Virus record (IMG/VR): IMGVR_UViG_3300026549_000005
Location: 1 to 64,000 of that record
DNA length: 64,000 nucleotides
Strand: one strand, 5' to 3'
From: a virus
The notes under the pieces were generated by a model that was given only the letters and a program-made list of their open reading frames with translations, ran no database searches and was not told the origin of the DNA. Shown here piece by piece: positions 38,047 to 62,234 of the stretch (the first letter of the stretch is position 1; every line of letters starts with the position of its first letter). Both the position numbers and the translations under genes were made by a program.

Positions 38047-38712
38047 TTAAAATATCGGTAAATCATCAAATAAAGGCATTCCACTTGCTGAAGGCTTAAA
38101 TTCTTCATCATCACTTGTAATACTGAAATCATAAGGGATATGCTCCCAATTGCCTTTATAATCATCTAATTTTTGTGCAAATAGCAGGATTTTTCTAGGC
38201 TGAAGTCTAACCAACATCTCATTCCACCCATCCATGAACAACTGCCGATGCTCTTTCTTGTTCATGCAACCTACATTGCTCACGGCAACAATGCTATCTT
38301 CAGGAACTCCGTCAAAACACCAGCTATAAGAATCTTTTGTTCCCCATTCAATAGTCGGAATAACTTTAATTCCCCTTTCTTGCCAATATCTTGCAACCCA
38401 CTGATTCCTATAATGATTAAAAACCTGCACTGCTTTTGGAAAATCAATGTAAGTTGAAAAATCAGGCTGAAGAACCGCATCGAATTTCTTTAATACTTCC
38501 ACATATCTGTTAGGATAATTCCACACCCTTTCAAACTGATAATCCCATATAAAAAATGTTATGCCCGTTTTTGGTGGTAATTTTGTGTTCATTGCATAAT
38601 TAAAAGTTTTCCACTTTTTAATATCAATATCTGTTACCCTTGCCAATTCAGGCACACCATATTCCCCAACACCCTCATAAAAAGCATCTTTCAAATTAAG
38701 AAAATCACCCAT
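38047..38712 (-). CDS. DUF4417-like protein ending in MPLFDDLPIF
   Basis: The pattern FFIWDYQFERVW...LQPDFSTYIDFP...NHYRNQWVARYWQERGIKVIPT matches my recall of DUF4417. Confidence 0.55.
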   Translation of the reverse strand: MGDFLNLKDAFYEGVGEYGVPELARVTDIDIKKWKTFNYAMNTKLPPKTGITFFIWDYQFERVWNYPNRYVEVLKKFDAVLQPDFSTYIDFPKAVQVFNHYRNQWVARYWQERGIKVIPTIEWGTKDSYSWCFDGVPEDSIVAVSNVGCMNKKEHRQLFMDGWNEMLVRLQPRKILLFAQKLDDYKGNWEHIPYDFSITSDDEEFKPSASGMPLFDDLPIF

Positions 38713-39003
38713 TTATTTCTGCTCCTTATTATTTTTATTTAATTCTGTAATAACTTTTTTATGATTACTTGATTTAATATTCATTTGTTTAACCTTTCTC
38801 ATTAATTGAACATTTTTCCCTTTCTTATATTCTAATTTTTCTTTCAATTTATTTATCTTATCTTCTGCAAACTTATTGGAACATTCCCTACATAAAGGTA
38901 TTTTGTATAAAGGCTCATTCAATAAATCTTTAACAATAAAAACCACGGGGGTTTCTTTCCCGCAAGAAATACAAACTGATTCCTGAAATACTTTTTCAAT
39001 CAT
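38713..39003 (-). CDS. zinc-finger, Lys-rich protein
   Basis: CISCGK ... CRECSNKF. Confidence 0.5.
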   Translation of the reverse strand: MIEKVFQESVCISCGKETPVVFIVKDLLNEPLYKIPLCRECSNKFAEDKINKLKEKLEYKKGKNVQLMRKVKQMNIKSSNHKKVITELNKNNKEQK

Positions 39004-39012
39004 ACTTCAACC

Positions 39013-39771
39013 TCACATATCAAATAATGGCATATTTAATTTTATTTCAGTTTCCACCTTTTCAGGTTCAACTTCTACACTAACTAATTTTTCCTGCTCC
39101 TGAATAGCAAGCCTTTCTTTTATCAAATTTATCCCAACCATAGGTGTTTCAAAAACATCAAAAACTTCCAAACTTATACTATTACCGTGAATTATCGTTG
39201 CAGGAATTCCCAATAAACTCATCTGTATCATTGACATACACACCGCATTCCAAGATAGGTCGGTCATTTCCACATACAAATTCTGCTGAAAGTTTATATC
39301 TTTTTTATAAAATGCCTCAGCAAGGGCAATTATCATTGCACCACCACCGCAAGCAGGCTCGGCAACCTTATATATTTTATTTTTATCAAGATTACCAGGA
39401 ATACTCATTTCAGCACAAACTTGACATACCGAATAAGGTGTAAAAAACTGCCCCATGCTATCACTTCCAAAATCGCAAGCCATGTAGACCTCACCAAGAA
39501 AATCCCTGAATCCATGCTCGAACCCTTCAGTCACCAACGCTAATAATTTTGGGAATTGCTCCTGCACATCTTTCTTGTACTTACCAATTATTGAAAGATA
39601 TTTATTTTCCCTTTCCTGATTAAAATGTGAAACGTTAGCAAACGCATAGCAGGATAATGTTAAAAAATCACAAAACACATCATACATATTATGCTCATAA
39701 GCCATTTTCTGAAGTGTTTTTATGAATTCATTTTGTTCATTGGATTGTACTGTTATTCTTTTACTACTCAT
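39013..39771 (-). CDS. N6-methyltransferase-like SAM-binding protein lacking a recognisable NPPY/F motif
   Basis: FFTPYSV...VAEPACGGGAMI resembles HsdM-type motifs X and I. No (D/N/S)PP(Y/F) follows. The protein ends NMPLFDM. Confidence 0.55.
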   Translation of the reverse strand: MSSKRITVQSNEQNEFIKTLQKMAYEHNMYDVFCDFLTLSCYAFANVSHFNQERENKYLSIIGKYKKDVQEQFPKLLALVTEGFEHGFRDFLGEVYMACDFGSDSMGQFFTPYSVCQVCAEMSIPGNLDKNKIYKVAEPACGGGAMIIALAEAFYKKDINFQQNLYVEMTDLSWNAVCMSMIQMSLLGIPATIIHGNSISLEVFDVFETPMVGINLIKERLAIQEQEKLVSVEVEPEKVETEIKLNMPLFDM

Positions 39772-39773
39772 AC

Positions 39774-39787
39774 ACTTTAATTATAGG
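39774..39787 (-). promoter_or_regulatory. class-2 motif CCTATAATTAAAGT, 8 nt from the ATG (leaderless candidate)
   Basis: Read directly. No SD lies between TATAAT and the ATG. Confidence 0.45.
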
Positions 39788-40010
39788 AAAATACCCCAAA
39801 ATAACGCTATTTCAGGCTCGGTTGATAAAAATATCAGCCTAACCCAAAACAACGCAACACAAGCAATACTCAAGCCAATCAGGGCATATTTTAGATGAAT
39901 AAAGGTGAACTATTTACTGCATTTTCAGTACTTTTTGTTGCAATACCTTTTTTCAAATATTTCAAACCTACCACTAAAGGTCGTTTTTTGCATATTCATC
40001 ATTTTTTCTT

Positions 40011-40316
40011 TTATCTCCTTAATTTTGAATAATCAGTAGCATTAAGTGAATAAAATTGCATATCTATCTTTTTCAAAGACGCAATATGCTTTTTGCTTGC
40101 TAACCTAGACCTTTTTATTAATTCTTCATACTCAATATTACTAAATATCCTTTCTTCAATACACCTTCCGATTTCTTCAATTTTGTTGCTTGAATTAACT
40201 TTTACAAAAATTGTTTCACCATACAAACGATAATCTCTGTCAATTATTTTAGAAAATACAAAAGTATCTGCCAAAAAACAAGGATTGTCTATTTCATAGA
40301 TTGCATCCCATTTCAT
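40011..40316 (-). CDS. hypothetical protein (101 aa)
   Basis: ORF track 40011..40448, trimmed to M45, which is preceded by AAGGAGATAAAAGAAAA. Confidence 0.5.
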   Translation of the reverse strand: MKWDAIYEIDNPCFLADTFVFSKIIDRDYRLYGETIFVKVNSSNKIEEIGRCIEERIFSNIEYEELIKRSRLASKKHIASLKKIDMQFYSLNATDYSKLRR

Positions 40317-40323
40317 TTTTCTT

Positions 40324-40539
40324 TTATCTCCTTGCAGGATAGAAAAATCTGTTTTCACTTCCAATGTCATCTTTGAAAGGGAAAGCATCGTGTTCACTCT
40401 GTCGTATTGTTGTAATGTCAGAACAACATTTACCTTCAACAATCTCAATCAGTTCATTAATGTTGTTTGCAACATAACCCTTTTTACCTTCAAATTTTTT
40501 AGACCATACAAACTTTACTTTTCTTGTCTTGAATTTCAT
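40324..40539 (-). CDS. hypothetical protein (71 aa)
   Basis: ORF track. Has the same 20-nt SD junction upstream. Confidence 0.5.
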   Translation of the reverse strand: MKFKTRKVKFVWSKKFEGKKGYVANNINELIEIVEGKCCSDITTIRQSEHDAFPFKDDIGSENRFFYPARR

Positions 40540-40554
40540 TTTTCTTTTATCTCC

Positions 40555-40797
40555 TTATAGATTATTTATCCATTCATTTATAATTTCTTTTGTTACACCA
40601 TTTTTATATTTTTCTTTTATTCCAGCTATTTTCTTTTCATCATTTTCATAAACCTTACCACTTGCCCTTTTATGTGATTTGGTATATTTACAACACATCC
40701 AAGTTTTCTTGAATAAATCAGCATAACCATCTTTACCCAATTCATTCCTTAATTCAGCAAGTTCCACATCTTTAATCCTTTTCCCCATTTTACACAC
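40555..40797 (-). CDS. small protein, paralogue of 37146..37349
   Basis: Shared C-terminus IKEKYKNGVTKEI. Confidence 0.5.
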   Translation of the reverse strand: MCKMGKRIKDVELAELRNELGKDGYADLFKKTWMCCKYTKSHKRASGKVYENDEKKIAGIKEKYKNGVTKEIINEWINNL

Positions 40798-41635
40798 CTA
40801 ATTCATTTTTAATTATTTCCACTTCATCATGTGTTAATTCACCACCATCATTTTTATTAAAATCTTCATAAGCATTTACAACTTCAACCTCAACACCCAT
40901 TGAGGCAATCTGCATTCCATACTTTCTTGCCTTTTCTTGTGCTTCAGGTTCATTATCAAATAAGATAAAAACCTTTTCAAACCTGCCTGCAATAACTGCA
41001 ATTTGTTCTTCAGTTAAAGCAGACCCAAAACAACACATGGAGTTATCACCTAACATGAAGCAATCAAAAGCACCTTCAGTAAGAATAACCCTGCTTTTAT
41101 TACAGTTATCAAGATTAAATAAACTTGTTTTAGGGTTTACACAACTTTCTTCAATGCTTAAATTCTTATATCTAGGAATTTTCAGTTCATCAGCCTTTTT
41201 CTTACTTAAAATAGTTCTACCCGTCCAAGAAACAATTTTACCATTGATTATAAGCGGAATAATAATTCTATATTTCCATTCCCCAGCAATACCACCACCA
41301 ACAACCCCATATTTTTCATGTAAATATCTAGGTGAAAAGTTCCTGCTTAATAAATATTTTCTTTCAGCAGGTGTAAATGTATCAGTCGGTAATTGCAGGT
41401 GCTTTGCCAATGGAATTCTTTTATTTAATCTAGCAACCGCAACATTTCTAGTTTCATACTGAGCAAGAACCTGATTCACTTCCCCGCTCGGAATAGCGAG
41501 CAACCTCGCCAATGTAGGTGTCGCCTGATGCCCTCCGCACTTCCAACAAGCACAATGCCCATCAGCAAGATTAAATCCCAAATGCTTTGAATGGCTAGAA
41601 GAAGTGCAGTACACGCATTCAACGTTTACACCCAC
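40790..41635 (-). CDS. DNA primase (zinc-binding + Toprim)
   Basis: CVYC...HCACWKCGGH. Toprim motifs ILTEGAFDCF and LFDNEPEAQ. Confidence 0.8.
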   Translation of the reverse strand: MGVNVECVYCTSSSHSKHLGFNLADGHCACWKCGGHQATPTLARLLAIPSGEVNQVLAQYETRNVAVARLNKRIPLAKHLQLPTDTFTPAERKYLLSRNFSPRYLHEKYGVVGGGIAGEWKYRIIIPLIINGKIVSWTGRTILSKKKADELKIPRYKNLSIEESCVNPKTSLFNLDNCNKSRVILTEGAFDCFMLGDNSMCCFGSALTEEQIAVIAGRFEKVFILFDNEPEAQEKARKYGMQIASMGVEVEVVNAYEDFNKNDGGELTHDEVEIIKNELGV

Positions 41636-41714
41636 CCCCTATTTCTTTTTGTTGTATAATCAATACCATAATCTTTGAAAAGTTTTACAAAATCATACAT
41701 TTGTCTTACCCCTT

Positions 41715-42353
41715 TTAGTTTGGCATTACGATTATTCTATAATCATCAGCAACAAATTCTCTAGGTTTTTTAGTTAAATATTCCCTTAAAACTAATTTTT
41801 TTGAAATCGCCAAAATAGCATAAAACTGTTTCATTGGTATCTTAAATTCTGTAATTTCATTTTCATCCGTCAAAAGATTAGTTTCATAAATGTCACCATA
41901 ACTAGCGATTGTTTCAACATCATCATTGTATGTGAAAATAACTTCATCATTAGTGAATGTAACTTCACCACCATTCGATGCAGGAATTCTAATGGTTGGA
42001 TATTTAGAAAAATCAATTACCTTTTCCACATAAGCACCCATAGGAATTGCATTTTCATACTTAAAATCATACTGAGAATAAGGTCTTTCCTCGCCATCAA
42101 TAATGATTTTTTCATCATTGAACTCTATGCTTTTCCTTACGTCTACATCAGCAGGGAAACTGAACCTATCATTATTTGAAACACAATTGGAAACGTCTTT
42201 GATTATCATAATTTTTCCGTTAGTTGCAGTCATAACATTTTTATCAATATAAATCCTATTGTGGTATCTTCTTTCAGATTCACCCCTACTTTTACAAAAT
42301 TTTAACATTACCTTGCAAACTTTCTTAAACTTATCAGCATTTAAGATTATCAT
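41715..42353 (-). CDS. hypothetical protein (212 aa)
   Basis: ORF track 41715..42359 (GTG). An ATG two codons in is preferred. Confidence 0.55.
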   Translation of the reverse strand: MIILNADKFKKVCKVMLKFCKSRGESERRYHNRIYIDKNVMTATNGKIMIIKDVSNCVSNNDRFSFPADVDVRKSIEFNDEKIIIDGEERPYSQYDFKYENAIPMGAYVEKVIDFSKYPTIRIPASNGGEVTFTNDEVIFTYNDDVETIASYGDIYETNLLTDENEITEFKIPMKQFYAILAISKKLVLREYLTKKPREFVADDYRIIVMPN

Positions 42354-42364
42354 ATTCACCTCAC

Positions 42365-42377
42365 ACTTTAATTATAG
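42365..42377 (-). promoter_or_regulatory. class-2 motif TCTATAATTAAAGT
   Basis: Directly after a terminator hairpin and before the SD GAGGTG. Confidence 0.5.
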
Positions 42378-42387
42378 AAATTGAAAT

Positions 42388-42417: not shown

Positions 42418-42440
42418 ACCCCCTTTTTTACTGCCTGATT

Positions 42441-43394: not shown

Positions 43395-43455
43395 CCTTAC
43401 ATTTATAAATATAAAGCAATTTATATAAAAAGTCAAGTAGTTTTTATAAATTATT
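43395..43455 (-). promoter_or_regulatory. class-1 promoter repeat (TTGACT-17-TATATT) plus 5'UTR hairpin
   Basis: Minus strand: ACTACTTGACTTTTTATATAAATTGCTTTATATTTATAAATGTAAGGAAAACTTACAAGGAG. Confidence 0.6.
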
Positions 43456-43462
43456 TTAATTT

Positions 43463-44257
43463 TTACATAAATAATGGTGAATTTTCATTTATATTTACAT
43501 CTTCCTGAACAAAGCCATTTTCAATTCTTTGCTTAGCAATTTCAAAATACTTATCATCTTTTTCAATACCAATAAAATTCCTATTTGTATTCTTGCAGGC
43601 AACTCCCGTTGAACCACTACCCATGCAATTATCTAAAATTGTATCATTTTCGTTGGTATAAGTTTTAATTAAATACATCAGCAGGGCAACGGGTTTTTGA
43701 GTAGGGTGAAATTTTTCAAAATCCCTCTTATATTTAAGAATGTTATTAGGACAGTTTGTTGACGATATAAATTCTTCATTTGTATTCAGTTTATTTCCAA
43801 GACTTTTATATCCTGATGATTTTCTAAAATTAGAATTAGGATTATTTCTTTTAATCTTCATATTTTTCCTATCCACATTGAATCTTATCGGATTATTGCT
43901 CAGACTTCCTACAGTAGCCTTAGAAAACACACATATATCCTCTGTTTTTTTCAAGGGAGCATAAGATGAATTCAAAAAACCATTAGGAGATTCCTTTTCC
44001 CAAATCCAATTATAACGATATAATTTAAGATTGGAACATATTAAAATTGATGTGAACGGCTGAACTGCAAACAAAACTATAGTTCCGTCATCTTTTATAA
44101 TTCTTTCATATTGATTCCACAATTTGTCAAAAGAAATAACACTATCCCATTTATGAGCAGTAGTTCCATAAGGCAGGTCACATAAAACCATATCAATTGA
44201 TTTATCAGGAATACTTTTCATCAACTCTAAACAATCACCATGTAATAACTGCATCAT
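43463..44257 (-). CDS. DNA N6/N4 methyltransferase (beta class)
   Basis: CDLPYG (motif IV) near the N-terminus. DNCMGSGSTG (motif I) near the C-terminus. The protein ends NSPLFM. Confidence 0.85.
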   Translation of the reverse strand: MMQLLHGDCLELMKSIPDKSIDMVLCDLPYGTTAHKWDSVISFDKLWNQYERIIKDDGTIVLFAVQPFTSILICSNLKLYRYNWIWEKESPNGFLNSSYAPLKKTEDICVFSKATVGSLSNNPIRFNVDRKNMKIKRNNPNSNFRKSSGYKSLGNKLNTNEEFISSTNCPNNILKYKRDFEKFHPTQKPVALLMYLIKTYTNENDTILDNCMGSGSTGVACKNTNRNFIGIEKDDKYFEIAKQRIENGFVQEDVNINENSPLFM

Positions 44258-48184: not shown

Positions 48185-49108
48185 TTATCCTAAAAGTGAT
48201 TCATAATCAAGACACGCAACTGTAATAGCAAATTTTCCATTTCTATATGTATCAGCCTGACTAAAAGCCTGCAATGCACAAACTGCATTCTGATTCATTT
48301 TACCTTTCAACAATACCGAATTCATATAACCCATAACTGCCTGCCTGATTCTTTCAGGCTCACTCAAATCCAAATCTTTAATTACCTGAGCAAGTTTTGC
48401 CCAGTTGCAACCCTGCGAAAGCAAGCATCTACACAACTCAATTGTTTCAGAATTTTCACCATCTACCCCTGCTGAAAGAACTTCCAATTGTTCATCTTCT
48501 GAATCCAAATAAAGAACCTTAGCAAGCAATTTTAATGCTTTTCTACTTCCACCATCAGCCTGCTCTATTATTGCATTTACAACTTCAGGTGTTAATTTCT
48601 TACCCTCTGCCCTTGCAGTCCTTTTAAGCAGGTAAGTCATTTCTTCATTGCTTAAAGGTTTCATTGCAACAACTGAACATCTTGTAACAAGCGGTTTTAT
48701 CAGTTTTTGTGGGTCGGTAGTACACAAGAAGAAATAAACATGGTCGGGTGTATCTTCGAGCGGTTTTAACATTGCATTCTGCATATCATTAGTCCACTTA
48801 TGGCATTCGTCAAAAATCCACACGAGAGCATCACCATCAGACGGCATATACTGCATTTGCTCCAAAATATCCCTTGCGGTATCAATACCACGGTTTTCAG
48901 CCGAGTTTATTTCACGAATGCTTAAATCACCTGCACCAACTTCTTTTGCGATGATTCTTGCCATTGTTGTTTTTCCGCAACCAGCATTTCCCGTAAACAA
49001 GAAAACATGACTACCATTTTCAAGTTCCTTTTTTACTGCCTTAATCGCCGATTCATTACCAACCATTTCATCTTCAGTTTGTGGTCTGTATTTTCTGTAA
49101 AGTTCCAT
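48185..49108 (-). CDS. clamp loader AAA+ ATPase (DNA pol III gamma/tau-like)
   Basis: GNAGCGKTT Walker A, IFDECH Walker B. The start was moved to M5 (GGAGGA SD). Confidence 0.8.
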   Translation of the reverse strand: MELYRKYRPQTEDEMVGNESAIKAVKKELENGSHVFLFTGNAGCGKTTMARIIAKEVGAGDLSIREINSAENRGIDTARDILEQMQYMPSDGDALVWIFDECHKWTNDMQNAMLKPLEDTPDHVYFFLCTTDPQKLIKPLVTRCSVVAMKPLSNEEMTYLLKRTARAEGKKLTPEVVNAIIEQADGGSRKALKLLAKVLYLDSEDEQLEVLSAGVDGENSETIELCRCLLSQGCNWAKLAQVIKDLDLSEPERIRQAVMGYMNSVLLKGKMNQNAVCALQAFSQADTYRNGKFAITVACLDYESLLG

Positions 49109-49119
49109 TTTATCCTCCA

Positions 49120-49131
49120 CATTAATTATAG
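49120..49131 (-). promoter_or_regulatory. class-2 motif variant CTATAATTAATG
   Basis: Read directly, upstream of the clamp-loader SD. Confidence 0.4.
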
Positions 49132-49149: not shown

Positions 49150-49467
49150 TTATTTTATTTTTTCTAAAAACAAAAACATTTGTCTATTTAATTTTTCTTG
49201 TTCAAATTCATTTAATTCAATTTTAATTGATGAATTATTTCCATCAAGCATAACTTCAACTCTTGATTTAGGAATTACTTTGCAAATATATTCAGCCATT
49301 TTGAAAATTGTATATTCCCTCCAACAAGTAAATTCTTGCCCTTGTATTATTACAGATTCATGTCTATCCAATTTTCTTGCTTCAATACTACCTTTAGAAT
49401 TTTTCTTATAGGCTTTCATTCCAATTGAAATAAATTCTTCAATCATGTTTTCGGTATTCCATATCAA
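49150..49467 (-). CDS. hypothetical protein (105 aa)
   Basis: ORF track. Confidence 0.5.
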   Translation of the reverse strand: MIWNTENMIEEFISIGMKAYKKNSKGSIEARKLDRHESVIIQGQEFTCWREYTIFKMAEYICKVIPKSRVEVMLDGNNSSIKIELNEFEQEKLNRQMFLFLEKIK

Positions 49468-50093
49468 TTTACAACCTCATCAATAAATATTAGTTCCTGA
49501 GCATACGGCAATGTTCTCGCCCAATCAATAAAAGATTTTGACCACTCTGTTAGTTTATGAAATCGCCTTTGCCCTTTACTGCACATTGCAAGCAAGTTTT
49601 CATAATCCATAGTAACCGTTCTTTTCTGCAACCAAGATTCAGGCAAATTTACAATAAGTTTTTTCCACCAAACTTTGTCTTTAGTTTCATTGTAATTTTT
49701 TCTATACCCCTCAAGAAATTCGATTGTTTTAGGCAAAATATAATTCCCGCATTCAAAACAATCTCTTGTAATTGGAGTATCAGCCAACTTGTGCATTGTA
49801 GAAGTTGAGTTTGCGACTGTTCCAACTTTGTATGTATCAAACTCTTTCCACCAGTAAAGCGGAGCAGTTATATCGACACATACGAAAATCTGTCGCATAA
49901 ACTTTCTATGCTCTGAACCTGCTTTTATCAGGCTTTGTGCAAGTTTAAGGTCATTTTCACCAATTACTGTATTTTCAATTTTTCCGTTATAGCCTTTAAA
50001 AATCGAATCACTTTTATTCCAACTATTTTTTGGATTCCTAGCACCCAAAATCGCATTATAAATGTTATATACCGATGTATCTTCAAAAAGCAT
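49464..50093 (-). CDS. ThyX-like (divergent flavin-dependent thymidylate synthase-like) protein
   Basis: SEHRKFMRQIFVCVDITAPLYWWKEFDTYKVGTVANSTSTMH resembles the ThyX core, but the RHR..S motif is not canonical. Confidence 0.45.
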   Translation of the reverse strand: MLFEDTSVYNIYNAILGARNPKNSWNKSDSIFKGYNGKIENTVIGENDLKLAQSLIKAGSEHRKFMRQIFVCVDITAPLYWWKEFDTYKVGTVANSTSTMHKLADTPITRDCFECGNYILPKTIEFLEGYRKNYNETKDKVWWKKLIVNLPESWLQKRTVTMDYENLLAMCSKGQRRFHKLTEWSKSFIDWARTLPYAQELIFIDEVVN

Positions 50094-50348: not shown

Positions 50349-52268
50349 TTAAAATAAACTATTTGTATTTAAGTCAATTCCAAAATCGGCAATTCTTTTT
50401 TTGGCTAAATTTATATACCAAGTCTTGTCAAGTTTTTCAGGAATTTCAACACCATTCACTTCATCATTAAAGATAAAAACATTATCGCAAGTATTAGCGA
50501 ACTTTTCGATAGTTGCACCTTCAGTTTTACATTTTCCAATGTAAGTATCTGATTTATCTTTACTAGCAAAAACCCTGAATGTTCTATCTGTAAGATAATG
50601 CCCATTATGCCAGCCCATGCAATAATTTGAACTTATTTTAACTATCTTTTGAAATTGCTTTAATTCATTACATTCAGCAATTGTATCTTCAGGCAACACA
50701 CCTTTAGTTAAATAATCAACAATTGCTTTATTCACAATCGGCAAATCGTTATCAAGTTCACTTAATTCCTTAACATAAGCACCTTTTCTTTCAAGTTTTC
50801 CATTAGTAAAACGCATGATGTAATTATTTACATCTTTCTGCCAAATTTCAGAAATTTCATCAAAACCCAATCCCATTTTTGTTCTATCCATCCATTCCTG
50901 ACATATTTCCCGCATTTTCTTTTCAGCATCATCATTATCAGCAACTTGCAGGATAATACCATCAGTATTTGATTGGATAATATCGGCATAACCCTCAAGA
51001 TGCTCGAGCAAATCAAGCAACATTAACTGCCCATTTACACAAACATTGTTTGCCTGCCGAGGGTCATAAGCACTTGAATTCTTATCTTTACAAATTCCAT
51101 AAGTAGAATTCAAAATAATCTTATATGGTGCTTGTTCTTTTTTCTTGCCTGCTTTTTTAAGTTCAACACGTTTATCGTATATTTCCTTAAACTTTTTCTT
51201 ATTCTCACAATTTCTAGTTAGAAAATCATAAACAATCATAATTGATGGATAATAAGAAGTAACATCAACATGGAATAATCGACCTTTTATGTGCAGAGGT
51301 TCTTCAGGACAACCATGTAGACCACCCCACCCGAACACATGAGGAACTCCACAAACTTCAATTTCCAAACTGTTTTTATAATCATGATTTCTAGGATTTT
51401 CAAACCAATCCCGCACAAGTTTATATTTTTTAAGTTTCAGAATTGGAACAATCTGTAAATCAAATTCATCATCATGTTCTTTCTTTTCACACCCAATAAC
51501 CTTTGCACTTAATTGAGCCTTAGTTGCCCTAACCTTTGCTATATCAAGATGAAAGGTGTTTATCATATCTATTTGTGCATCATATTCTGTTTTTCTTATC
51601 TTAAATACTTCAATAAGCTGCTCAACATCATGCCCACAATATTTAATTGTTTCCACAACTTCATGTCTTGTTAATTCCCTATCCAAATCAAAAGGAACAC
51701 TTGTTTCTTTTATGTTATTACCCATGAATCCTTCAAGTTGTTTTAATCCTTGCATAGCAGGAGCAATGTCAAAATCAAGCAACTGAATATCTTTAAATTC
51801 ATCACTAATCTGCCAACCCTTCATTCCCAGCATAATAATTTTATCGTTTACTTTTTTAGGGTTCATATCAAGTAAAATTGATTTAAGAATGTATGTATCA
51901 TAATTTCTTGAATTATAGCCAACCCACAATTCTTCTTTATGGTGTCTGTAATAACGTTTTAATGCTTTTCTATCATTTACAATAACTTCTTTTATGTTTT
52001 CAATCGGATTAACGATAACGACCATCCAATCGCACATAAACACTTCAAAATCATAAAAATTAAGTGAATATGGATAATTTTCAATTGTAAAATCCTGATA
52101 TTTTTCATGGTCAAGTTGCACCTTTCTATCCATAACAATCAATTTATCTAAATCAGGTTCTTTATAAACAATCTTTTTAGGTTTTACATCTGCAACTTCT
52201 TTCTTTACAACCATTTGTGCAGGTTCACCCCTTAAAATTCTAATATCATCAGAATCAAATAAACTCAT
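50349..52268 (-). CDS. family B DNA polymerase
   Basis: Exo I FYDFEVF, Exo II GYNSRNYDTY, Exo III YCGHDVEQL, motif A DVTSYYPS, motif B KIILNSTYG, motif C SNTDGI. The protein ends NTNSLF. Confidence 0.85.
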   Translation of the reverse strand: MSLFDSDDIRILRGEPAQMVVKKEVADVKPKKIVYKEPDLDKLIVMDRKVQLDHEKYQDFTIENYPYSLNFYDFEVFMCDWMVVIVNPIENIKEVIVNDRKALKRYYRHHKEELWVGYNSRNYDTYILKSILLDMNPKKVNDKIIMLGMKGWQISDEFKDIQLLDFDIAPAMQGLKQLEGFMGNNIKETSVPFDLDRELTRHEVVETIKYCGHDVEQLIEVFKIRKTEYDAQIDMINTFHLDIAKVRATKAQLSAKVIGCEKKEHDDEFDLQIVPILKLKKYKLVRDWFENPRNHDYKNSLEIEVCGVPHVFGWGGLHGCPEEPLHIKGRLFHVDVTSYYPSIMIVYDFLTRNCENKKKFKEIYDKRVELKKAGKKKEQAPYKIILNSTYGICKDKNSSAYDPRQANNVCVNGQLMLLDLLEHLEGYADIIQSNTDGIILQVADNDDAEKKMREICQEWMDRTKMGLGFDEISEIWQKDVNNYIMRFTNGKLERKGAYVKELSELDNDLPIVNKAIVDYLTKGVLPEDTIAECNELKQFQKIVKISSNYCMGWHNGHYLTDRTFRVFASKDKSDTYIGKCKTEGATIEKFANTCDNVFIFNDEVNGVEIPEKLDKTWYINLAKKRIADFGIDLNTNSLF

Positions 52269-52323: not shown

Positions 52324-53406
52324 TTATTTCTTTACATCAATTGTTGAAATCAAGTGTGTAGATGTTGGAGTCACAAACAACAAACGCATCGCCTCTTTTC
52401 CACTTTTCAAAGTCTGCTTTACAAGATAGAATTCGGTTGAACGCTTCGCAATAAATGACATCATGTTAGGGTCAACATATACGGTAATAGGTTCAAATTC
52501 TTCACCCAAATTTTCAACCCAATCAACTTTTTCAGCATAATTTCCCGTCGCTCTTTCGGATTCAACTAAAATACCATCAGTTGAAAGTGTTAATCTAATT
52601 GCAGATTTTTCAACTGTTTCAATACTGAATGGCACTGCACGGTCAATTGCATTAAACATTTCAAGCGGGAATTTTCCATGCAATCCACTTTCCTTATCAT
52701 CAGATATGGCAAGAACCTTTTCAATTGCCTCAAGCGGGAATTTGTTAAATTGCAGGGTTTTTACACTAAAAACTGTTTCATTTACAGACTTAAAATGAAC
52801 CCAATTTCCATTCAACTGAACTGAAGTCAATTTTCCAACTTTAAGCAATTCAGCAACGGATTTATCAGACAACCAAAATTCAGATAAATCAACATCTTTG
52901 AAGTCATATTTATTTACCTGCCATCCATCAGTTGAATACATTGTTGCACCCTTTACTGCAATTCCTGCCATTGGTGTTTTGTTATTCTGCATTAAACAAG
53001 TTCCAAGTCCATCTGCAAAATCTTCAGGTAAATCAACCCAATCTTCAGCAGGCTCAACACCTTCAAGTCTTGTCTGATATTCAAATTCCATCAGGGTTAA
53101 TTCAGCCTTTGCCTTACCATTTTTCAAAACCCATTTTTTCTCGGCAACTTCAAATTCAATTTCATCTGAAGGGAATTTGCTGATAACCTTAAAGAATTCA
53201 TCTGCATGAACTGCACCCTCAATTGATTCTTCAACCAATCCCGCCTGCTCAATTGGCACTGCAACTGAAATCAAATCATTGTAACTGTAAATCCTGCCTG
53301 AATGGAAAATAAAGGCATCTGCACCCGATAAAGTTGAATTCCCCGTTTCAATACCAGGCATTGCCATTTTAAGACTTTCCATCAGTGCTTTTTTCTGAAC
53401 AACCAT
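52324..53406 (-). CDS. beta-type (three-domain, DnaN-like) sliding clamp
   Basis: 360 aa. Repeated domain pattern. Position beside the polymerase gene. Confidence 0.65.
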   Translation of the reverse strand: MVVQKKALMESLKMAMPGIETGNSTLSGADAFIFHSGRIYSYNDLISVAVPIEQAGLVEESIEGAVHADEFFKVISKFPSDEIEFEVAEKKWVLKNGKAKAELTLMEFEYQTRLEGVEPAEDWVDLPEDFADGLGTCLMQNNKTPMAGIAVKGATMYSTDGWQVNKYDFKDVDLSEFWLSDKSVAELLKVGKLTSVQLNGNWVHFKSVNETVFSVKTLQFNKFPLEAIEKVLAISDDKESGLHGKFPLEMFNAIDRAVPFSIETVEKSAIRLTLSTDGILVESERATGNYAEKVDWVENLGEEFEPITVYVDPNMMSFIAKRSTEFYLVKQTLKSGKEAMRLLFVTPTSTHLISTIDVKK

Positions 53407-55819: not shown

Positions 55820-55875
55820 TACAATATGATTATTTTATAAATCAATTTATATTAAAAGTCAAGTAGTTTTATTCA
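55820..55875 (-). promoter_or_regulatory. class-1 promoter repeat (TTGACT-17-TATAAA)
   Basis: Minus strand: AAACTACTTGACTTTTAATATAAATTGATTTATAAAATAATC...GGAGGATATGTATG. Confidence 0.55.
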
Positions 55876-56588
55876 AATAAAGGTAAATTATTCTTTTTTA
55901 TACCTTTATTCCACGGAATACAACCTTTCTTTCTACCAACATTTTTCCTTTGTTCTGCATTCAACTTCACCCCTTTATTCCAAGCAACTTGCCCTTTATG
56001 TGATTTTTTCAAATTTTCAATATGCTCTTTTGAAAAAACCCTGCCTTTTGCCGATTCAGATATTTTCTTTTTAGTTTCTTCACTATGTTTTCTACCCTTT
56101 TGAGATTGACTCATGTGCAATCTTGCTAAATCTGAAGGTATTTTTCCTAAATGGGCATTCCTATTTTTTAATTTTGTTCTTTCACTATGCTTTTTCCCAT
56201 AAAATCCATTTTTAGAACCATAATTAGCACATTTTTCAGATAATAACTTTTTAGTCTTTTCACTATGATGCTTACCATAAAACGGGTTTAATTCGCCACA
56301 ACCAATTCCACCATCACCACCTGCTGAAATGTTATATTCTGCTTTACCTTCACCACGACATAAAGCAATGAAAACTTTTTCCAAAATATTTACATTTTCT
56401 TTTGTTTCTGTAATTGCTAAAATTTCTTTTGAAAAAATTTCTAACCCATACTTTTCTTTAGCAAGTTTTAATTTACAACCTGAACCCATATATTTATCTG
56501 TTTCAGGTGTTTTATTAGCAGGACACTTTCTTTGCCCTATATATGTTTTCCCATTAATATTGTTTGTTATACAATAAATATAAAACAT
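55869..56588 (-). CDS. free-standing GIY-YIG homing endonuclease with NUMOD3-type repeats
   Basis: FYIYCITNNINGKTYIGQ. Repeats GKHHSEKTKKLLSEK, GKKHSERTK, GRKHSEETKKKISE. The protein ends NLPLFE. TGATG overlap with the upstream gene. Confidence 0.85.
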   Translation of the reverse strand: MFYIYCITNNINGKTYIGQRKCPANKTPETDKYMGSGCKLKLAKEKYGLEIFSKEILAITETKENVNILEKVFIALCRGEGKAEYNISAGGDGGIGCGELNPFYGKHHSEKTKKLLSEKCANYGSKNGFYGKKHSERTKLKNRNAHLGKIPSDLARLHMSQSQKGRKHSEETKKKISESAKGRVFSKEHIENLKKSHKGQVAWNKGVKLNAEQRKNVGRKKGCIPWNKGIKKNNLPLFE

Positions 56589-57211
56589 CAGTTTCCTCTT
56601 ACACAAACGCTTGAAACACCTTTTATATTTTTCTTTACTTCAAAAACCCTATCCGCTATATCAATAAATTGATTCTCATGTGTGACCATAATTATTTCGA
56701 GTCCGAGTTTTGTAGATAACTGCCTAACAACTTCACAAACCCTACTCATCAAATCTTTACTTACAAATTTCATAGGTTCATCAAGTATCATCACATTATC
56801 ACAATTTGATGATAAAACATAACTAGCCAACCTTAATGCCCAACAAGTAACATCTACTACCCCGCCCCCGCTGGCATTCATAGGGTCAATTGGTCTGCCC
56901 GTTTTTTGTGATAGGAAAACTAATTCAGCATCAGTTTTACCCCTTGCAATATTAAACTGTAACTGAAATTCATATTCATTTGGAAAACAAGTTTCAAGTG
57001 CAAGATTTACAATATCTTCAATCTGAAATTTCAATTGTGATTGTGTATCTTGTGCCACTTTCTGCAAGAATGCCTGAGCCTGCTCCAACAACTTAATTCT
57101 ATTATTAAGATTATCGAGTGTTGTTTTATTCTGAATAAGGTTATTTTTAATCTGCTTTTTCATTCCCTTAGATTGCAGGAACAATTGTTTTACTCTGTTT
57201 ATATCCATCAT
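56588..57211 (-). CDS. SbcC/Rad50-like ATPase, C-terminal half only
   Basis: Short coiled coil, then signature ASGGG, Walker B MILDEP and H-loop VTHE. There is no Walker A. Confidence 0.75.
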   Translation of the reverse strand: MMDINRVKQLFLQSKGMKKQIKNNLIQNKTTLDNLNNRIKLLEQAQAFLQKVAQDTQSQLKFQIEDIVNLALETCFPNEYEFQLQFNIARGKTDAELVFLSQKTGRPIDPMNASGGGVVDVTCWALRLASYVLSSNCDNVMILDEPMKFVSKDLMSRVCEVVRQLSTKLGLEIIMVTHENQFIDIADRVFEVKKNIKGVSSVCVRGN

Positions 57212-57528: not shown

Positions 57529-57529
57529 T

Positions 57530-58079: not shown

Positions 58080-58098
58080 ATTTACACCTCACTGTTTA

Positions 58099-58998
58099 TT
58101 ATAGATTTTCAGATTCAAATTCTTCTATCAAAGTTTTAACATTCTTTGAATTAACCATTGTTCCATGAATAAATACAAATTTACCCTTTGCTTTTTTATA
58201 GTAACTACTTCCACAATATCTAAAATGTGCTTTTCTAAAATGAGGTGTAACTGTATAACCACTACTTGATAATTTTACATTTTCCTTAACAACATCATTA
58301 GCTGATAAAATAAACTTTTTAGATTTATAACTATTTGAAATAAATCCTTTAGGTAATCCGTTTCTAACACAATCTGGAAAACATTCCATATACATTATTG
58401 TATTCAACATTAACTGCCAAACTTTCAAATCCATTTCATCAACATCAGACTTTGGATTTTTAAGAAAATCATTTGAACTATTTATCTGTGCATAATTTAT
58501 CCCCTCAATATAATCAAGTGTTAAAGTATCATCATCTTCAACAAAAACCGAAAATGTATATCCTTTATCCGTATTAGGTAAATGTAAACAAATTACAAAT
58601 TGCTTTTTTTCTTTAGCAATCTTTTTTTCAGTATCAGCAATAAAGACAGTTTCTGAATTATCGCTAATATATTTTTTAATTCCTTCTAAATCTTTCACAT
58701 TTAAATTTTCCAAAAATGTCAAAAGATTTTCAGTTTCCACAAAAATATGAAGCGACTTTCCCAATAAATCAGCACTAAATATTCCGTTAATTGCACCAAT
58801 AACAGTTTTAACATCAACATCATCACAAAGAGAACACCGCTCAATCTCAGCCAATTTTTGACTAAAAATCATTTGTCTGCAAATTTCAAAATCAAGCCCA
58901 CTTTCTTTTTGCAAAAATTTAATGTCATTTTTATCCAAATTATTATATAACGAATATAATTCAGTAAGACATTTACTATATTTTATTTTTGTTTTCAT
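58099..58998 (-). CDS. hypothetical protein (299 aa)
   Basis: ORF track. Confidence 0.55.
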   Translation of the reverse strand: MKTKIKYSKCLTELYSLYNNLDKNDIKFLQKESGLDFEICRQMIFSQKLAEIERCSLCDDVDVKTVIGAINGIFSADLLGKSLHIFVETENLLTFLENLNVKDLEGIKKYISDNSETVFIADTEKKIAKEKKQFVICLHLPNTDKGYTFSVFVEDDDTLTLDYIEGINYAQINSSNDFLKNPKSDVDEMDLKVWQLMLNTIMYMECFPDCVRNGLPKGFISNSYKSKKFILSANDVVKENVKLSSSGYTVTPHFRKAHFRYCGSSYYKKAKGKFVFIHGTMVNSKNVKTLIEEFESENL

Positions 58999-59002
58999 AC
59001 GT

Positions 59003-59863
59003 CTATACCTCCAACAATTCCTCTACAACTTCCTTTAATTCAGGCTCAAAATCATTACGCTTCATCATCGCCTCAACATTCGCAAGGAAATCAAGTGAAA
59101 CACCTTTTGTCTTTTTTAATTTATCCACAAAAGATTCAATCCTTTCATTACGCTGATTTTCCTGCAAAATGTATGAATCATCTATTAAATCTTCATTATC
59201 AATTATAGGAATAAACTCAACAATATTTTTATCTGTATCAACAAAATAAACCCCGCATTGATAATCTTTCATATCGCTTGCCTGCCTAAGCAAACAACCG
59301 CTATTTACAACGTGTCTACCCTTTTTTTCATAATGAAAGTTATGATGATAGTCACCCGTAAAAATCCATTTTGCGGTCGGGTATTTTTCAAGCAGGGATT
59401 CAGGAGTCTCGCAATCTACAAAGTCGGGTTTGTCTTCCTGCGGGATGGTCAAAGTGTGAATGAACATATAAGGCATTTCCAATCTTTCTTCATCAAAATT
59501 ACCCGCTGAAAATTCATCAGAATAATCTTCAATCTTAAATATGTTTTCACTATTAAAAAGAACCCCAATTGCTGATTTATCAAGATTTTCTGAATTGTGA
59601 TATGGCAAGTCGTGATTACCAGCAAGAATATACAAACCGCCTGCACAATCAGCCAATTTCTGCACCATACTTATACATTCAAAACTTGTATCTGAATTAG
59701 AATGGAATATATCACCAACTACCATTATTGGAGCATCCTTATCTTCAGATATTTTAAGTATCTGCCTTAATGCTTGTCTTTGTGTTTCCAACCAGTCATT
59801 GTCAACCCTGCAACGAGGTCTTGTTGCCCTTATGTGCCAATCTGCCGTTATTATCGCTCTCAT
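59003..59863 (-). CDS. SbcD/Mre11-like metallophosphoesterase nuclease
   Basis: ITADWHI, VVGDIFH, LAGNHD, TGDYHH. Confidence 0.8.
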   Translation of the reverse strand: MRAIITADWHIRATRPRCRVDNDWLETQRQALRQILKISEDKDAPIMVVGDIFHSNSDTSFECISMVQKLADCAGGLYILAGNHDLPYHNSENLDKSAIGVLFNSENIFKIEDYSDEFSAGNFDEERLEMPYMFIHTLTIPQEDKPDFVDCETPESLLEKYPTAKWIFTGDYHHNFHYEKKGRHVVNSGCLLRQASDMKDYQCGVYFVDTDKNIVEFIPIIDNEDLIDDSYILQENQRNERIESFVDKLKKTKGVSLDFLANVEAMMKRNDFEPELKEVVEELLEV

Positions 59864-59865
59864 AA

Positions 59866-60081
59866 TTACTCCTTATTCAACCAATCCATTGCCCTCTGCT
59901 TTGCGTATTCGTCAGAATTGTTAAGCAAGTCTTGAATAATTGTCTTTGCATATTCAAGACTTTCTTCCCTAGGCAATGCTCCCGTAATATAACCGTTTAC
60001 AAAAATCGGTCTATCTATCATAGATGTACATTTCCACTGTATAGTGTTTGTAGCTTCTTTTCTTAAACTTTCCTCTGTCAT
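59866..60081 (-). CDS. hypothetical protein (71 aa)
   Basis: ORF track. Confidence 0.5.
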   Translation of the reverse strand: MTEESLRKEATNTIQWKCTSMIDRPIFVNGYITGALPREESLEYAKTIIQDLLNNSDEYAKQRAMDWLNKE

Positions 60082-60130
60082 TTCACCTTCCCCTCAAAAA
60101 ATTTTCCATTCGTCCATTTCAATTGGTCTA

Positions 60131-60379
60131 TTACAACAAGGACAAATTGCAGGCAATTTCCCCTATGTATTTATATTCAACAAATCTTACCTTATCCCCA
60201 AATCGGTTTTCTGAATTTCTTTCAACATTCTGAATAACATAACCTTCATTACGCAACGTATAAATTATTGCTGATAACCTTGTTGCACCAAATTTTTCAA
60301 AAGCCTCCATTGAAGTTATGCTCTTATTTTCCTTGAGATATTCAAGAATTCTTCCCGTATTTCCACTATGCTTTTTCAT
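60131..60379 (-). CDS. winged-helix DNA-binding protein (82 aa)
   Basis: ILEYLKENKSITSMEAFEKFGATRLSAIIYTLRNEGYVI. Flanked by the duplicated hook-coding repeat. Confidence 0.6.
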   Translation of the reverse strand: MKKHSGNTGRILEYLKENKSITSMEAFEKFGATRLSAIIYTLRNEGYVIQNVERNSENRFGDKVRFVEYKYIGEIACNLSLL

Positions 60380-61427
60380 GTTTGCCTCCCTTGCATATAT
60401 TCATAGGATTACCGCACAAAGGACAAATTGCAGGTAATTGCTCCTGCAAACACTTAATATCTGCCACACTGTTTTCAATGTGCATTTCCTGAATTCCATA
60501 ATTATAAATTGATTGTTCCAAATCCTTAACTTTTACTTCCAATTCATCTGTATTAAAACTTTCAATTTTTGCAATAAGTTTCTTTTCTTCAGTAAAATCA
60601 GGATATTCCTTTATACTTTCAAATTCATCAATGCTTTCAGCCAACTGAGCGACCTGCTCGCCTAACTCCGTAGACCTCTGCATCCATTCCTCAACCTCAG
60701 CAACCAACTTCTTCTGCTTTTCCAAATCAAAAATTCTTTCTGAGCAGGATTCATAATCTGATAGTGATTTTTCAAGAAACATTACATCACTTTCAATCTG
60801 ATTTTTACGGTTTGAAACACGCTCATATTTTTCAATCAATATTTCAGCATCATCAAGCCATTCAAAAGCCTGCAACTTATCTTCACAATCTTTAATTTGT
60901 GCCTGAACATTTTTAATATCATTTTGTGTTTTTCTTCTTGTTGCTTCAGCATTAGTTAAAACCCTATCAATAACATCAAGCCTTACAACCTTATTAAAAT
61001 ATTTTGCAACTTCACCACTAGATTTTGAAAGAAGAAAAGGCTCATCAAGTTGTTTCTGAATGTTGGTATCAGATAAACACAAAGCCTGCTCCACTTCAGC
61101 AGGAACATCAGATTTTACAACATCAAGCACCTTACCATTCACAATGTACTGATTATCATTTTTAGTTCTTTTTCTTGTTACAGTGCCAAAATCATTTTCA
61201 ACTGTAACTGTCATTTCACTTTTCAAATCACCTTTATCATTCAATGCCCAATGACTTGCAAGTGTATCAATTCCCAAAGGTCTGTTATATCTTGCCCAAT
61301 ACAAGCCTCTAAGAATTGCTGATTTACCATTATTAGATGAACCAACAATTACATTTATTCCCTTATCAAAATCAAGCCTTGTATTTTCATGTGATTGAAT
61401 ATTTTTAAGTTCAATGCTTTTAATCAT
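60366..61427 (-). CDS. SbcC/Rad50-like ATPase, N-terminal half ending at a CxxC zinc hook
   Basis: Walker A GSSNNGKSA, about 200 aa of coiled coil, then LPAICPLCGNPM near the C-terminus. Confidence 0.8.
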   Translation of the reverse strand: MIKSIELKNIQSHENTRLDFDKGINVIVGSSNNGKSAILRGLYWARYNRPLGIDTLASHWALNDKGDLKSEMTVTVENDFGTVTRKRTKNDNQYIVNGKVLDVVKSDVPAEVEQALCLSDTNIQKQLDEPFLLSKSSGEVAKYFNKVVRLDVIDRVLTNAEATRRKTQNDIKNVQAQIKDCEDKLQAFEWLDDAEILIEKYERVSNRKNQIESDVMFLEKSLSDYESCSERIFDLEKQKKLVAEVEEWMQRSTELGEQVAQLAESIDEFESIKEYPDFTEEKKLIAKIESFNTDELEVKVKDLEQSIYNYGIQEMHIENSVADIKCLQEQLPAICPLCGNPMNICKGGKHEKA

Positions 61428-61440
61428 CAATAACTCCTAT

Positions 61441-61454
61441 ACCTTAATTATAGG
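61441..61454 (-). promoter_or_regulatory. class-2 motif variant CCTATAATTAAGGT
   Basis: Directly after a terminator and before the SD AGGAG. Confidence 0.45.
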
Positions 61455-61464
61455 AATTTAAAAT

Positions 61465-61497
61465 AAAAAAAAGGCACTGATTTTATTCAGTGCCTTT
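61465..61497 (-). terminator. rho-independent terminator
   Basis: AAGGCACTGA ... TCAGTGCCTT stem, followed on the minus strand by T8. Confidence 0.75.
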
Positions 61498-61501
61498 TCA
61501 A

Positions 61502-62234
61502 TCACAAATCAAATAATGGTGAATCAAAATAATCTTGTTGCTTTCCTAGCACAAAATCACAAATCCAATTTCTTGCATAATCTGAACTTATCATAGACCT
61601 TTCTTCTGAACACAAGCCCGCTCTACTTGCCATTTTACATTTCATTATTATTTTTTGCTCTTTATCTTTCTGATAACTAAATCCGTTTGTAGGTTCACAA
61701 TTCCAAAACCAATAAGCCGTAGGTTTCTTGAAATAATCACCACGCTCCATTCTATTCATATCAACAACATCAGGTGCTTTCAAAAAATTACCTTTAAGAA
61801 AAGTTTGTTCACTCCACGGATTCTCAAAAACCATTCTGATATTTTTATCTAAGCATACTGCAACAAATTTCACCAACCTATCAAAATATTCTTTACGGTT
61901 ATCAGACCTTTCCAAAATCTTTTCAATTTTTTCCCTAACAGTTAAACATCTATAATTTACATTTGTAAGATAAAATGCCGTTTGTGACATAGCACAAAAA
62001 TAAATGCAAGGATAAAAAGCAACAATCAAATCATCACTTTTTATCTCATCAAATACGGATTGCCCCCCCCCTATATGCTTTATCAATTTCTGAAAATAAA
62101 TCCATAACAAAATCAGTTTCACCAAAATTGTTTTGAATATCATAATCCATTGCATCAATTCCCAATTTCTTGAATTCATTTTTGAATGTTCCTGATTGTT
62201 CAAAGAAACAATGCACTTTACCTTTAATTTCCAT
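61502..62234 (-). pseudogene. DNA (cytosine-5)-methyltransferase-like gene split into two frames at a G9 tract
   Basis: Track ORFs 62049..62234 (FFEQSGTFKNEFKKLG...) and 61502..62203 (...AFYPCIYFCAMSQ, FENPW, ends SPLFDL) overlap across the tract. Removing one G joins them. Confidence 0.65.
62063..62071 (-). repeat. homopolymer G9 (C9 on the plus strand)
   Basis: Read directly. The length is confirmed by both track translations (YRGGA versus HIGGGQ). Confidence 0.85.

Follow-up and report, generated by a model that had tools for sequence, protein, structure and literature searches.

The window analysed here is a 64,000-nucleotide stretch of viral DNA (positions 1 to 64,000 of the IMG/VR record IMGVR_UViG_3300026549_000005), in which six open reading frames (ORFs), all on the minus strand, end in the C-terminal pattern x-[MLS/N]-[P/S]-L-F. 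An earlier note on this DNA had listed these six endings and read them as tails that recruit DNA-modification enzymes, and even a homing endonuclease, to a phage-encoded replisome clamp. The six ORFs were confirmed, with the C-termini given there; Pfam and PHROG matches were used to assign domains to them. The tailed genes, the clamp and the clamp loader are located as follows.

38047..38712, minus strand: DUF4417 protein of 221 amino acid residues (PF14386, E = 6e-55, residues 13-183; phrog_8680 and phrog_940), C-terminus ..SASGMPLFDDLPIF; a double tail, ..GMPLFDDLPIF, on an extension of ~20 residues, lies at 38050..38082, minus strand.
39013..39771, minus strand: truncated HsdM-like (N6_Mtase-like) protein of 252 residues, "N6-like" below (partial PF02384 match, E = 6e-8; phrog_5696), C-terminus ..KLNMPLFDM; the tail ..NMPLFDM, at the end of a disordered extension of ~22 residues, lies at 39016..39036, minus strand.
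43463..44257, minus strand: N6_N4 DNA methyltransferase of 264 residues (PF01555, E = 6e-32, residues 21-243; phrog_67, E = 6e-81), C-terminus ..NENSPLFM; the tail ..NSPLFM, on a variable linker of ~15 residues after the core end ..QRIENG, lies at 43466..43483, minus strand.
48185..49120, minus strand: AAA+ clamp loader of 311 residues (phrog_5846 and phrog_168, "clamp loader of DNA polymerase", E = 6e-61).
50349..52268, minus strand: DNA polymerase (divergent, family B-like) of 639 residues (phrog_1252, E = 2e-150), C-terminus ..DLNTNSLF; the tail ..TNSLF, at the extreme C-terminus, lies at 50352..50366, minus strand.
52324..53406, minus strand: predicted DnaN-type (beta) sliding clamp of 360 residues with three domains (phrog_947, "DNA polymerase processivity factor", E = 2e-20).
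55869..56606, minus strand: GIY-YIG/NUMOD3 homing endonuclease of 245 residues (PF07460, PF19835), C-terminus ..KKNNLPLFE; the tail ..NLPLFE lies at 55872..55889, minus strand.
61502..62234, minus strand: frameshifted gene similar to C5-methyltransferases, "C5-like" below (N-terminal piece from 62234 to 62049, C-terminal piece from 62203 to 61502; phrog_757, "DNA methyltransferase"); the tailed ORF, 61502-62203, has the C-terminus ..YFDSPLFDL, and its tail ..DSPLFDL lies at 61505..61525, minus strand.
62063..62071, minus strand: run of nine G (G9), the frame break of the C5-like gene.

Written out further, the tail peptides of the window are GIDLNTNSLF (polymerase), QEDVNINENSPLFM, TEIKLNMPLFDM, SASGMPLFDDLPIF, QQDYFDSPLFDL and IKKNNLPLFE, with EDVNINENSPLFM and EIKLNMPLFDM (N6-like) as further forms.

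The motif is enriched at C-termini. In a set of 96 non-overlapping ORFs chosen greedily (19,399 residues), [PS]LF tripeptides occur 13 times, six of them within the last nine residues (binomial P = 2.4e-6 against the proteome's own composition); for PLF alone, five of seven occurrences are terminal (P = 1e-6). A scan of all ORFs of at least 30 residues revealed no further credible gene with such a C-terminus in the window, in agreement with the note, in which none of the other ORFs checked ended this way. Tailed ORFs make up 6 of the 40 minus-strand ORFs in the replication half versus none of the 45 ORFs in the structural half (hypergeometric P ~0.009, calculated by hand from ORF counts). The G+C content of the window is 32-37%, and nearly every gene is on the minus strand. 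The DNA 3' of the six stop codons differs from gene to gene (ribosome-binding sites, promoters, a terminator), and a repeated DNA element therefore does not account for the shared peptide; a DNA-level repeat as the source of the common endings was rejected for every gene other than the GIY-YIG gene, which is discussed below. Pfam and PHROG domains stop 7-38 residues short of the C-termini of the tailed proteins. The tails thus sit on non-conserved linkers outside folded domains, in flexible terminal regions, as seen from the disordered tail of the N6-like model, the variable linkers and the extensions that are missing from tailless homologues.

Both the three-domain beta-like clamp and the clamp loader that had been reported for this DNA are encoded where expected. 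The AlphaFold2 (AF2) model of the clamp (predicted local distance difference test score, pLDDT, 90; predicted template modelling score, pTM, 0.85) shows three beta-alpha-beta domains, and all 50 matches listed by a Foldseek search of PDB are bacterial DnaN proteins (template modelling score, TM, 0.7-0.8, E ~1e-20, 13-17% identity). On the same 50 matches and the three-domain build of the 360-residue protein, an identity as a trimeric two-domain gp45/PCNA-like clamp was rejected. The window clamp itself has no Pfam match, some of its homologues match PF00712, and a profile of the family built from 33 homologues matches Streptococcus pyogenes DnaN (2avt) with E = 3e-8. Given this topology and profile similarity, we are confident that the protein has the predicted DnaN fold. 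Residues S158-T159-D160-G161 are invariant or nearly so in the family and align with the ATD(S/G)H segment of DnaN, which we take to line the peptide pocket. There are 119 metagenomic homologues of the clamp. No cultured close relative of the phage was found, and among cultured phages only the Vibrio MAR10/SSP002-like group has a distantly similar clamp. The family also occurs on two contigs binned into metagenome-assembled genomes (MAGs) of Treponema sp. and Acutalibacteraceae, which are probably phage contigs. As relatives we used 80 IMG/VR loci around clamp homologues (L001-L080), which were retrieved with an alignment as the query; the single clamp sequence matched none.

The orthologue of the clamp loader in L169, a 65-kb relative whose clamp is 91% identical to that of the window, matches PF13177 (DNA_pol3_delta2) and AAA. 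The rest of the replication module consists of a DnaB-like helicase, SbcCD-like proteins, a SNF2 helicase, a single-stranded DNA-binding protein (SSB), a RecA/UvsX-like recombinase and a primase; in the window, no tail is present on the helicases, primase, recombinase, SSB or SbcCD-like proteins. The loader ends in ..ACLDYESLLG, an ending of the form ..ACLDY(E/L/T)(S/D)LLG that is restricted to the close clade, and a phrog_6721 protein encoded just downstream of the polymerase (49464-50093) ends in ..LPYAxEL(L/I)F(L/I). To judge by their sequences, these two conserved hydrophobic C-termini might be further clamp contacts.

The polymerase gene lies directly downstream of the clamp gene, and its product is presumably the primary clamp client. 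Its description as a family-B polymerase holds in a weakened form: there are matches to Pfam DNA_pol_B (E = 2e-4, below the cutoff) and to E. coli Pol II in PDB (E = 0.005), both weak. Polymerase orthologues in clamp loci consist of a core ending in ..KRIxDFGI followed by ~9 residues that end in a hydrophobic pair. Nineteen of the 20 complete close-clade polymerases that adjoin the clamp in IMG/VR loci end in LF, LL or FF (..DDSLF, ..EDSLF, ..IGGLF, ..GGLL, ..EIKLF, ..SLFDF, ..NDFF), and the polymerases of the five loci L169-L173 are tailed likewise, which holds for the 91%-identical relative and for two MAG contigs too. The split polymerase of L021 ends in ..ERGLF; in that locus (10127-12951) the gene is cut into parts of 525 and 183 residues by a GIY-YIG homing endonuclease gene, and the tail is on the C-terminal piece. 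In loci without a detected clamp, 22 polymerase homologues, including those of Bacillus phage BMBtp15 and Paenibacillus phage Wanderer, stop at the core (..KRIxDF or ..MLRDIGY); one ambiguous end, ..KQLEFKM, comes from a Staphylococcus phage. The presence of the polymerase tail correlates with the presence of a phage clamp.

Across phage clades the same clamp family adjoins three unrelated polymerases: the PolB-like phrog_1252, a PolA fused to uracil-DNA glycosylase (UDG), and a PolIII-alpha with a PHP domain. The PolA-UDG and PolIII-alpha-PHP polymerases beside distant clamps also carry hydrophobic tails (..QYFDF, ..KFFIF, ..GLLGINGK), as would follow from a role of the extreme C-terminus in docking to the clamp. 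Examples of such other polymerases, each with its own style of hydrophobic tail, are found in L024 (4320-6971) and L063 (3518-6223). A protein of 232-234 residues, encoded just downstream of the polymerase (L025 6879-7583, L024 7009-7707), ends in ..KPLFEI or ..KLLFEM and has a weak, sub-threshold match to the DnaN central domain (PF02767, E = 1e-4). An unannotated family of ~490 residues upstream of the clamp (L001 5048-6481, L005 5815-7293, L007, L010, L012, L019) ends in a conserved ..TFDDMxEVVF and has no Pfam or PHROG match.

The N6-like protein links the window motif to a recognized consensus. Its label as truncated is borne out: the S-adenosylmethionine-binding motif I is present, the catalytic motif IV, (N/D/S)PP(Y/F/W), is missing from the window protein and from 148 of 150 representatives, and the AF2 model (pLDDT 93) consists of an HsdM-like helical domain and half a Rossmann fold with four beta-strands, for which Foldseek finds HsdM and gamma-class methyltransferases (TM 0.3-0.47). 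An active gamma-class N6-adenine methyltransferase at 39013-39771 was rejected on the missing motif IV and the four predicted strands. Past residue 231 the model has no secondary structure, and along the tail pLDDT falls from 95 to 75, 66 and 47. The representatives, which an exhaustive search yielded after reduction to diverse members at 50% identity (P0360-P0509), carry Q-h-x-h-[FL] within the last 12 residues in 53 of 150 cases versus 3.3 expected, 28 of them at the very end. Among 65 N6-like tails, 56 have Q at -3 and 45 have L, M, I or F at -2, and S, A and D are the commonest residues at -1. The bacterial beta-clamp consensus is QLxLF (PMC2705854). The tail of the wider family matches this consensus residue by residue, and the canonical motif stands in the same position as the window tail. 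The contigs of two members with the canonical tail, P0429 and P0493, are too short to inform on genomic context. The family, typically ~250 residues with a disordered linker and canonical QLxLF, is widespread in phages. In Faecalibacterium phage FP_Taranis the homologue (L168 11294-12187) has a long Pro/Lys-rich linker followed by ..GQLTFF; this temperate phage replicates by the lambda-type O/P route, and the annotation of its replication module lists neither a polymerase nor a clamp. Candidate roles for the family are a clamp-targeted regulator, an anti-restriction decoy and a split-methyltransferase subunit.

Homologues of the N6_N4 methyltransferase align up to the core end ..QRIENG, followed by a variable linker of 10-20 residues and then xLF. 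In clamp loci, 9 of 13 have an LF tail (..FALFQ, ..EFALF, ..KYDLF, ..KYSLFGDI, ..SLPLFLE). Most of 80 IMG/VR homologues collected by core similarity stop at the core, and a minority are tailed, some with canonical-looking ends (..MQPDLFGEIA); the clamp family is present in just one of these 80 loci. Several viral contigs with no such clamp within 10 kb (L087, L092, L095-L097, L110, L120) encode N6_N4 methyltransferases that end in ..(R/M)QPDLFG(G/E)xx, which looks like a near-canonical host beta-clamp motif. For the C5-like gene, the ending ..YFDSPLFDL stands as given in the note, but the gene turned out to be split by the frameshift in the G9 run. Removal of one G restores an intact ORF of 243 residues, collinear end to end with the 237-residue "DNA methyltransferase" of Bacteroides phage B40-8, and the frame break reflects an error of assembly or in the homopolymer, or else a phase-variable switch. 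Homologues of the C5-like protein end in ..DNDALF (L009), ..RGRLL (L051) and ..KHSIRSLF (phage B40-8); no homologue of the window clamp was detected in B40-8.

Of the 120 best homologues of the DUF4417 protein, just the six nearest, which are at least 71% identical, have the extension, with the endings MPLFDELPIF, MPLFEDLPIF, FPLFDIEV and MPLLEEGFVF, and the other 114 stop at the core; this distribution points to a recent, lineage-specific gain. One tailless DUF4417 gene (P0132) lies between terminase and portal genes in another phage type and is uninformative on clamps. The tail of the GIY-YIG endonuclease is absent from all 120 best homologues, of which the closest (89% identity) ends in ..NKGMKKNLSEVK (..KKNLSEVK). 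Its origin is apparent from L169: the same slot between the same flanking genes (5605-7532) is occupied there by an N6_N4 methyltransferase (6223-6954) that ends in ..KLDENLPLFE*, and the 91% DNA homology between the window and L169 begins exactly at AAT TTA CCN TTA TTT GAA TAA and continues downstream. The GIY-YIG gene has therefore replaced the body of an N6_N4 methyltransferase gene and reads in frame into the last six codons of that gene; its tail is inherited and did not evolve on the endonuclease. The right-hand recombination junction at these six codons makes the C-terminus of the endonuclease an in-frame chimera. The endonuclease acquired the tail passively and may or may not now be tethered to a clamp; the claim of a selfish homing endonuclease with clamp recruitment of its own fails. 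Conservation in orthologues is accordingly uneven, with 0 of 120 for the GIY-YIG endonuclease and 6 of 120 for DUF4417, but with tailed relatives for the polymerase and the N6-like, N6_N4 and C5-like proteins. The refuting outcome that the note had named, a tail not kept by orthologues, applies to the GIY-YIG endonuclease and largely to DUF4417.

Among the relatives, terminal LF is found 87 times in clamp loci, compared with ~31 expected, and is concentrated in a few families, with convergence across unrelated folds. These include N6_N4 methyltransferase subfamilies (among them a helicase-methyltransferase fusion ending in ..GQSLFNEND), a D12 Dam-type methyltransferase (..CGGLF) and Mom (PF25680; ..ENKLFDL, ..TFSLFE) in clamp-encoding relatives, as well as PAPS-reductase-like (..DDKLFDW, ..FKLFDF, ..DDALFDF), radical-SAM/SPASM (..SLPLFEI, ..KTGLFD) and DpdA-like proteins (..INYLF, ..NNFFF, ..RVNTLF) in clamp loci. 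Apart from the polymerases, all tailed families are known or suspected DNA-modifying enzymes. In none of 37 distinct close-clade tails is there a Q at -3; an acidic residue or Asn stands there instead, in polymerase and modifiers alike. This Q-less flavour suggests one common partner with a specificity slightly unlike that of host DnaN, pointing to the phage clamp. Within single genomes, the tail flavour of the polymerase does not evidently vary together with that of other proteins, apart from the clade-level loss of Q. Genes for DpdA-like proteins (phrog_887, "queuine tRNA-ribosyltransferase") are often immediately upstream of the clamp (L031 6773-7672, L038 8020-9988, L047 6763-9982), and the clamp family is within 10 kb in ~45 of 79 DpdA loci (L175-L253). 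The DpdA endings are ..GFGL, ..GLF or ..INYLF with the clamp and mostly ..(R/H)VQELF without it, all following conserved sequence.

A conserved 15-mer, AACTACTTGACTTTT, which includes a TTGACT -35-like hexamer, has five copies in the window versus 0.45 expected, two of which directly follow the stop codons of tail-bearing genes. Its sequence is probably that of a phage promoter family. The copies are:

5050-5064, plus strand
35218-35232, minus strand
36530-36544, minus strand
43428-43442, minus strand
55854-55868, minus strand

Taking these observations together, we consider it likely that the tails are short linear motifs that bind a clamp, and that the polymerase and several DNA-modifying proteins would thereby dock to a common site on a sliding clamp. 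What we infer here is the physical binding, which clamp is involved (phage, host or both) and how the phage benefits. Each tail would be a short linear motif that ends a flexible extension on an otherwise complete catalytic domain. The phage would make its own DnaN-type ring and loader, and the polymerase would dock to the ring via ..TNSLF. The N6_N4 and C5-like methyltransferases, the truncated HsdM-like protein and DUF4417 would then ride clamps left on newly replicated phage DNA, so that modification would be coupled to replication in space and time, ahead of host nucleases. Of the original proposal that modification enzymes and an endonuclease are recruited to the replisome clamp, the part on the enzymes gains support from the conservation of polymerase and methyltransferase tails and their co-occurrence with the clamp, while the part on the endonuclease, whose tail is inherited, does not.

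Several observations weigh against this interpretation. The window tails all have L-F and a small residue (P or S) at position 3, but none of the six has the Q of the bacterial consensus (N in three; D, G and T in the others), and position 2 is hydrophobic in just three; the consensus itself is described as "often poorly conserved" (PMC2705854). The DUF4417 tail is limited to homologues of at least 71% identity and the GIY-YIG tail is not conserved. The same families are tailed in phages without a clamp of their own (FP_Taranis ..GQLTFF, B40-8 ..IRSLF), so the phage clamp is not required to explain the motif. Hydrophobic ends that are conserved along with the preceding sequence, as in phrog_6721 (..LPYAxELLFL), DpdA-like proteins (..VQELF) and the loader (..LDYxxLLG), may be structural, not docking. 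Finally, related sequences are not independent, and family counts therefore overstate the number of evolutionary events.

The tails could, by their sequences, bind host DnaN, the phage clamp or both. One alternative holds that they do bind a clamp but that the modification enzymes dock to host DnaN, with the phage clamp serving the phage polymerase only. The canonical QLxLF of the N6-like family at large is of host type, and it recurs in FP_Taranis, with neither polymerase nor clamp annotated in its replication module; to these add the ..IRSLF of the B40-8 C5-like methyltransferase and the ..QPDLFG methyltransferases of viral contigs without such a clamp nearby. Canonical motifs in clamp-less phages indicate that these families can target host DnaN. 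In the clamp-encoding clade, however, the lack of Q in all 37 tails and the acidic or Asn flavour common with the cognate polymerase favour the phage clamp, and as this clamp is itself a DnaN homologue, both readings can hold together. As an exclusive explanation, the host clamp seems to us unlikely. Less probable still is another kind of short linear motif, such as a C-terminal degron for a host or phage protease that would confine the enzymes to a time window, or a docking peptide for SSB, recombinase or helicase. Hydrophobic C-terminal residues are typical of several bacterial degrons, but the replicative polymerase, which needs a clamp, is tailed only when the clamp gene is present, the motif of the wider N6-like family fits the clamp consensus at every residue, and the similar tail of RB69 polymerase is a structurally proven clamp binder (PMC2705854).

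Coincidence or shared DNA descent, whether by AT-rich codon bias (TTA TTT), 3'-end recombination or structural C-termini without docking function, has the least to recommend it. It can draw on the GIY-YIG tail, one of the six, having been inherited by gene replacement, and on CCN TTA TTT being the commonest codons in a 33% G+C genome. It is largely refuted by the enrichment (P = 2e-6) against the proteome's own composition, by the unrelated sequences 5' of the motif and 3' of the stop in the other five genes, and by divergent orthologues that keep tails with different codons and linkers.

Beyond shared docking to a clamp in this phage, a wider reading is possible, which we put forward tentatively and with less than even confidence: phage DNA-modification enzymes as a class may have gained clamp tails convergently, which would couple self-protective modification to the fork, and the Q-less drift in clamp-encoding phages would give them a tool-belt of their own that is partly orthogonal to the host clamp. 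The class comprises N6_N4, Dam-type and C5-like methyltransferases, Mom, PAPS-reductase/DndC-like, radical-SAM/SPASM and DUF4417 proteins, possibly DpdA, and the truncated HsdM-like family with QLxLF. Should the tails bind a clamp, modification of phage DNA would be a replisome-borne process and not a post-replicative one by free diffusion; this would account for how phages outpace host restriction of nascent DNA, and the clamp interactome of bacteria and phages would gain DNA-modifying enzymes as a new class of clients. A linker with xLF at the C-terminus would also be a simple signature for DNA-acting enzymes among unknown phage proteins, such as DUF4417 and the truncated HsdM-like family, and the GIY-YIG tail is a natural case of a motif passed on by gene replacement, from a methyltransferase to a homing endonuclease. 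A full-text literature search found no report in which phage methyltransferases, other DNA-modification enzymes, DpdA or homing endonucleases are connected with clamp-binding motifs. What is new here is the proposed use of DNA-modifying enzymes as clients of a phage DnaN-type clamp, possibly along with the host clamp; the tool-belt mechanism itself is well known.

The closest known parallel is the bacterial beta-clamp motif (QL[SD]LF or QLxLF), found in Pol II, Pol III alpha, Pol IV, Pol V, MutS, MutL, Hda and others. As in the window, a short L-F peptide is carried on a flexible terminal extension, the ring is a three-domain DnaN type, and many unrelated clients use one motif. E. coli Pol II, a family-B polymerase with a C-terminal clamp motif, is a parallel to the window polymerase. 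The window differs in its proposed clients (DNA methyltransferases of the phage, a catalytically truncated HsdM-like protein and DUF4417), none of which we found reported as a clamp client, in its tails, which are Q-less and mostly have Pro at position 3, and in its clamp, which the phage itself encodes and which shares only 13-17% identity with bacterial DnaN. In T4 and RB69 the phage polymerase gp43 is likewise tethered to a phage clamp, gp45, by its extreme C-terminus, and the complex of the RB69 polymerase tail with gp45 has been solved (PMC2705854). The end of RB69 polymerase, ..ASLFDMFDF, resembles ..PLFDM, ..PLFDL and ..MPLFDDLPIF of the window and ..SLFDF and ..KLFDF of its relatives. 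In contrast to the 360-residue three-domain clamp of the window, gp45 is a trimeric two-domain PCNA-like ring. The T4 proteins gp33 and gp55 also use the clamp (PMC9690074), and the known additional T4 clients are transcription factors, ligase and RNase H, whereas here they would be DNA-modifying enzymes. MuC of phage Mu uses the host sliding clamp for late transcription (bioRxiv 10.1101/2025.01.04.631326); as proposed here, a phage protein with a clamp-binding motif uses a clamp beyond replication, although MuC is a transcription activator acting on the host clamp in a phage without its own, and the window has a set of modification enzymes. In eukaryotes, a clamp-binding peptide brings the DNA methyltransferase DNMT1 to newly replicated DNA via PCNA (PMC9690074). 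The motif and clamp there are different: the PCNA-interacting (PIP) box is Qxx[LIM]xx[FY][FY], and the pattern Qxx[LIVM]xx[FY][FY] fits none of the six window tails. The purpose of the eukaryotic system is epigenetic inheritance and that of the phage system presumably protection from restriction, but in bringing DNA methyltransferases to nascent DNA the proposed phage system would be a prokaryotic-virus analogue of DNMT1-PCNA.

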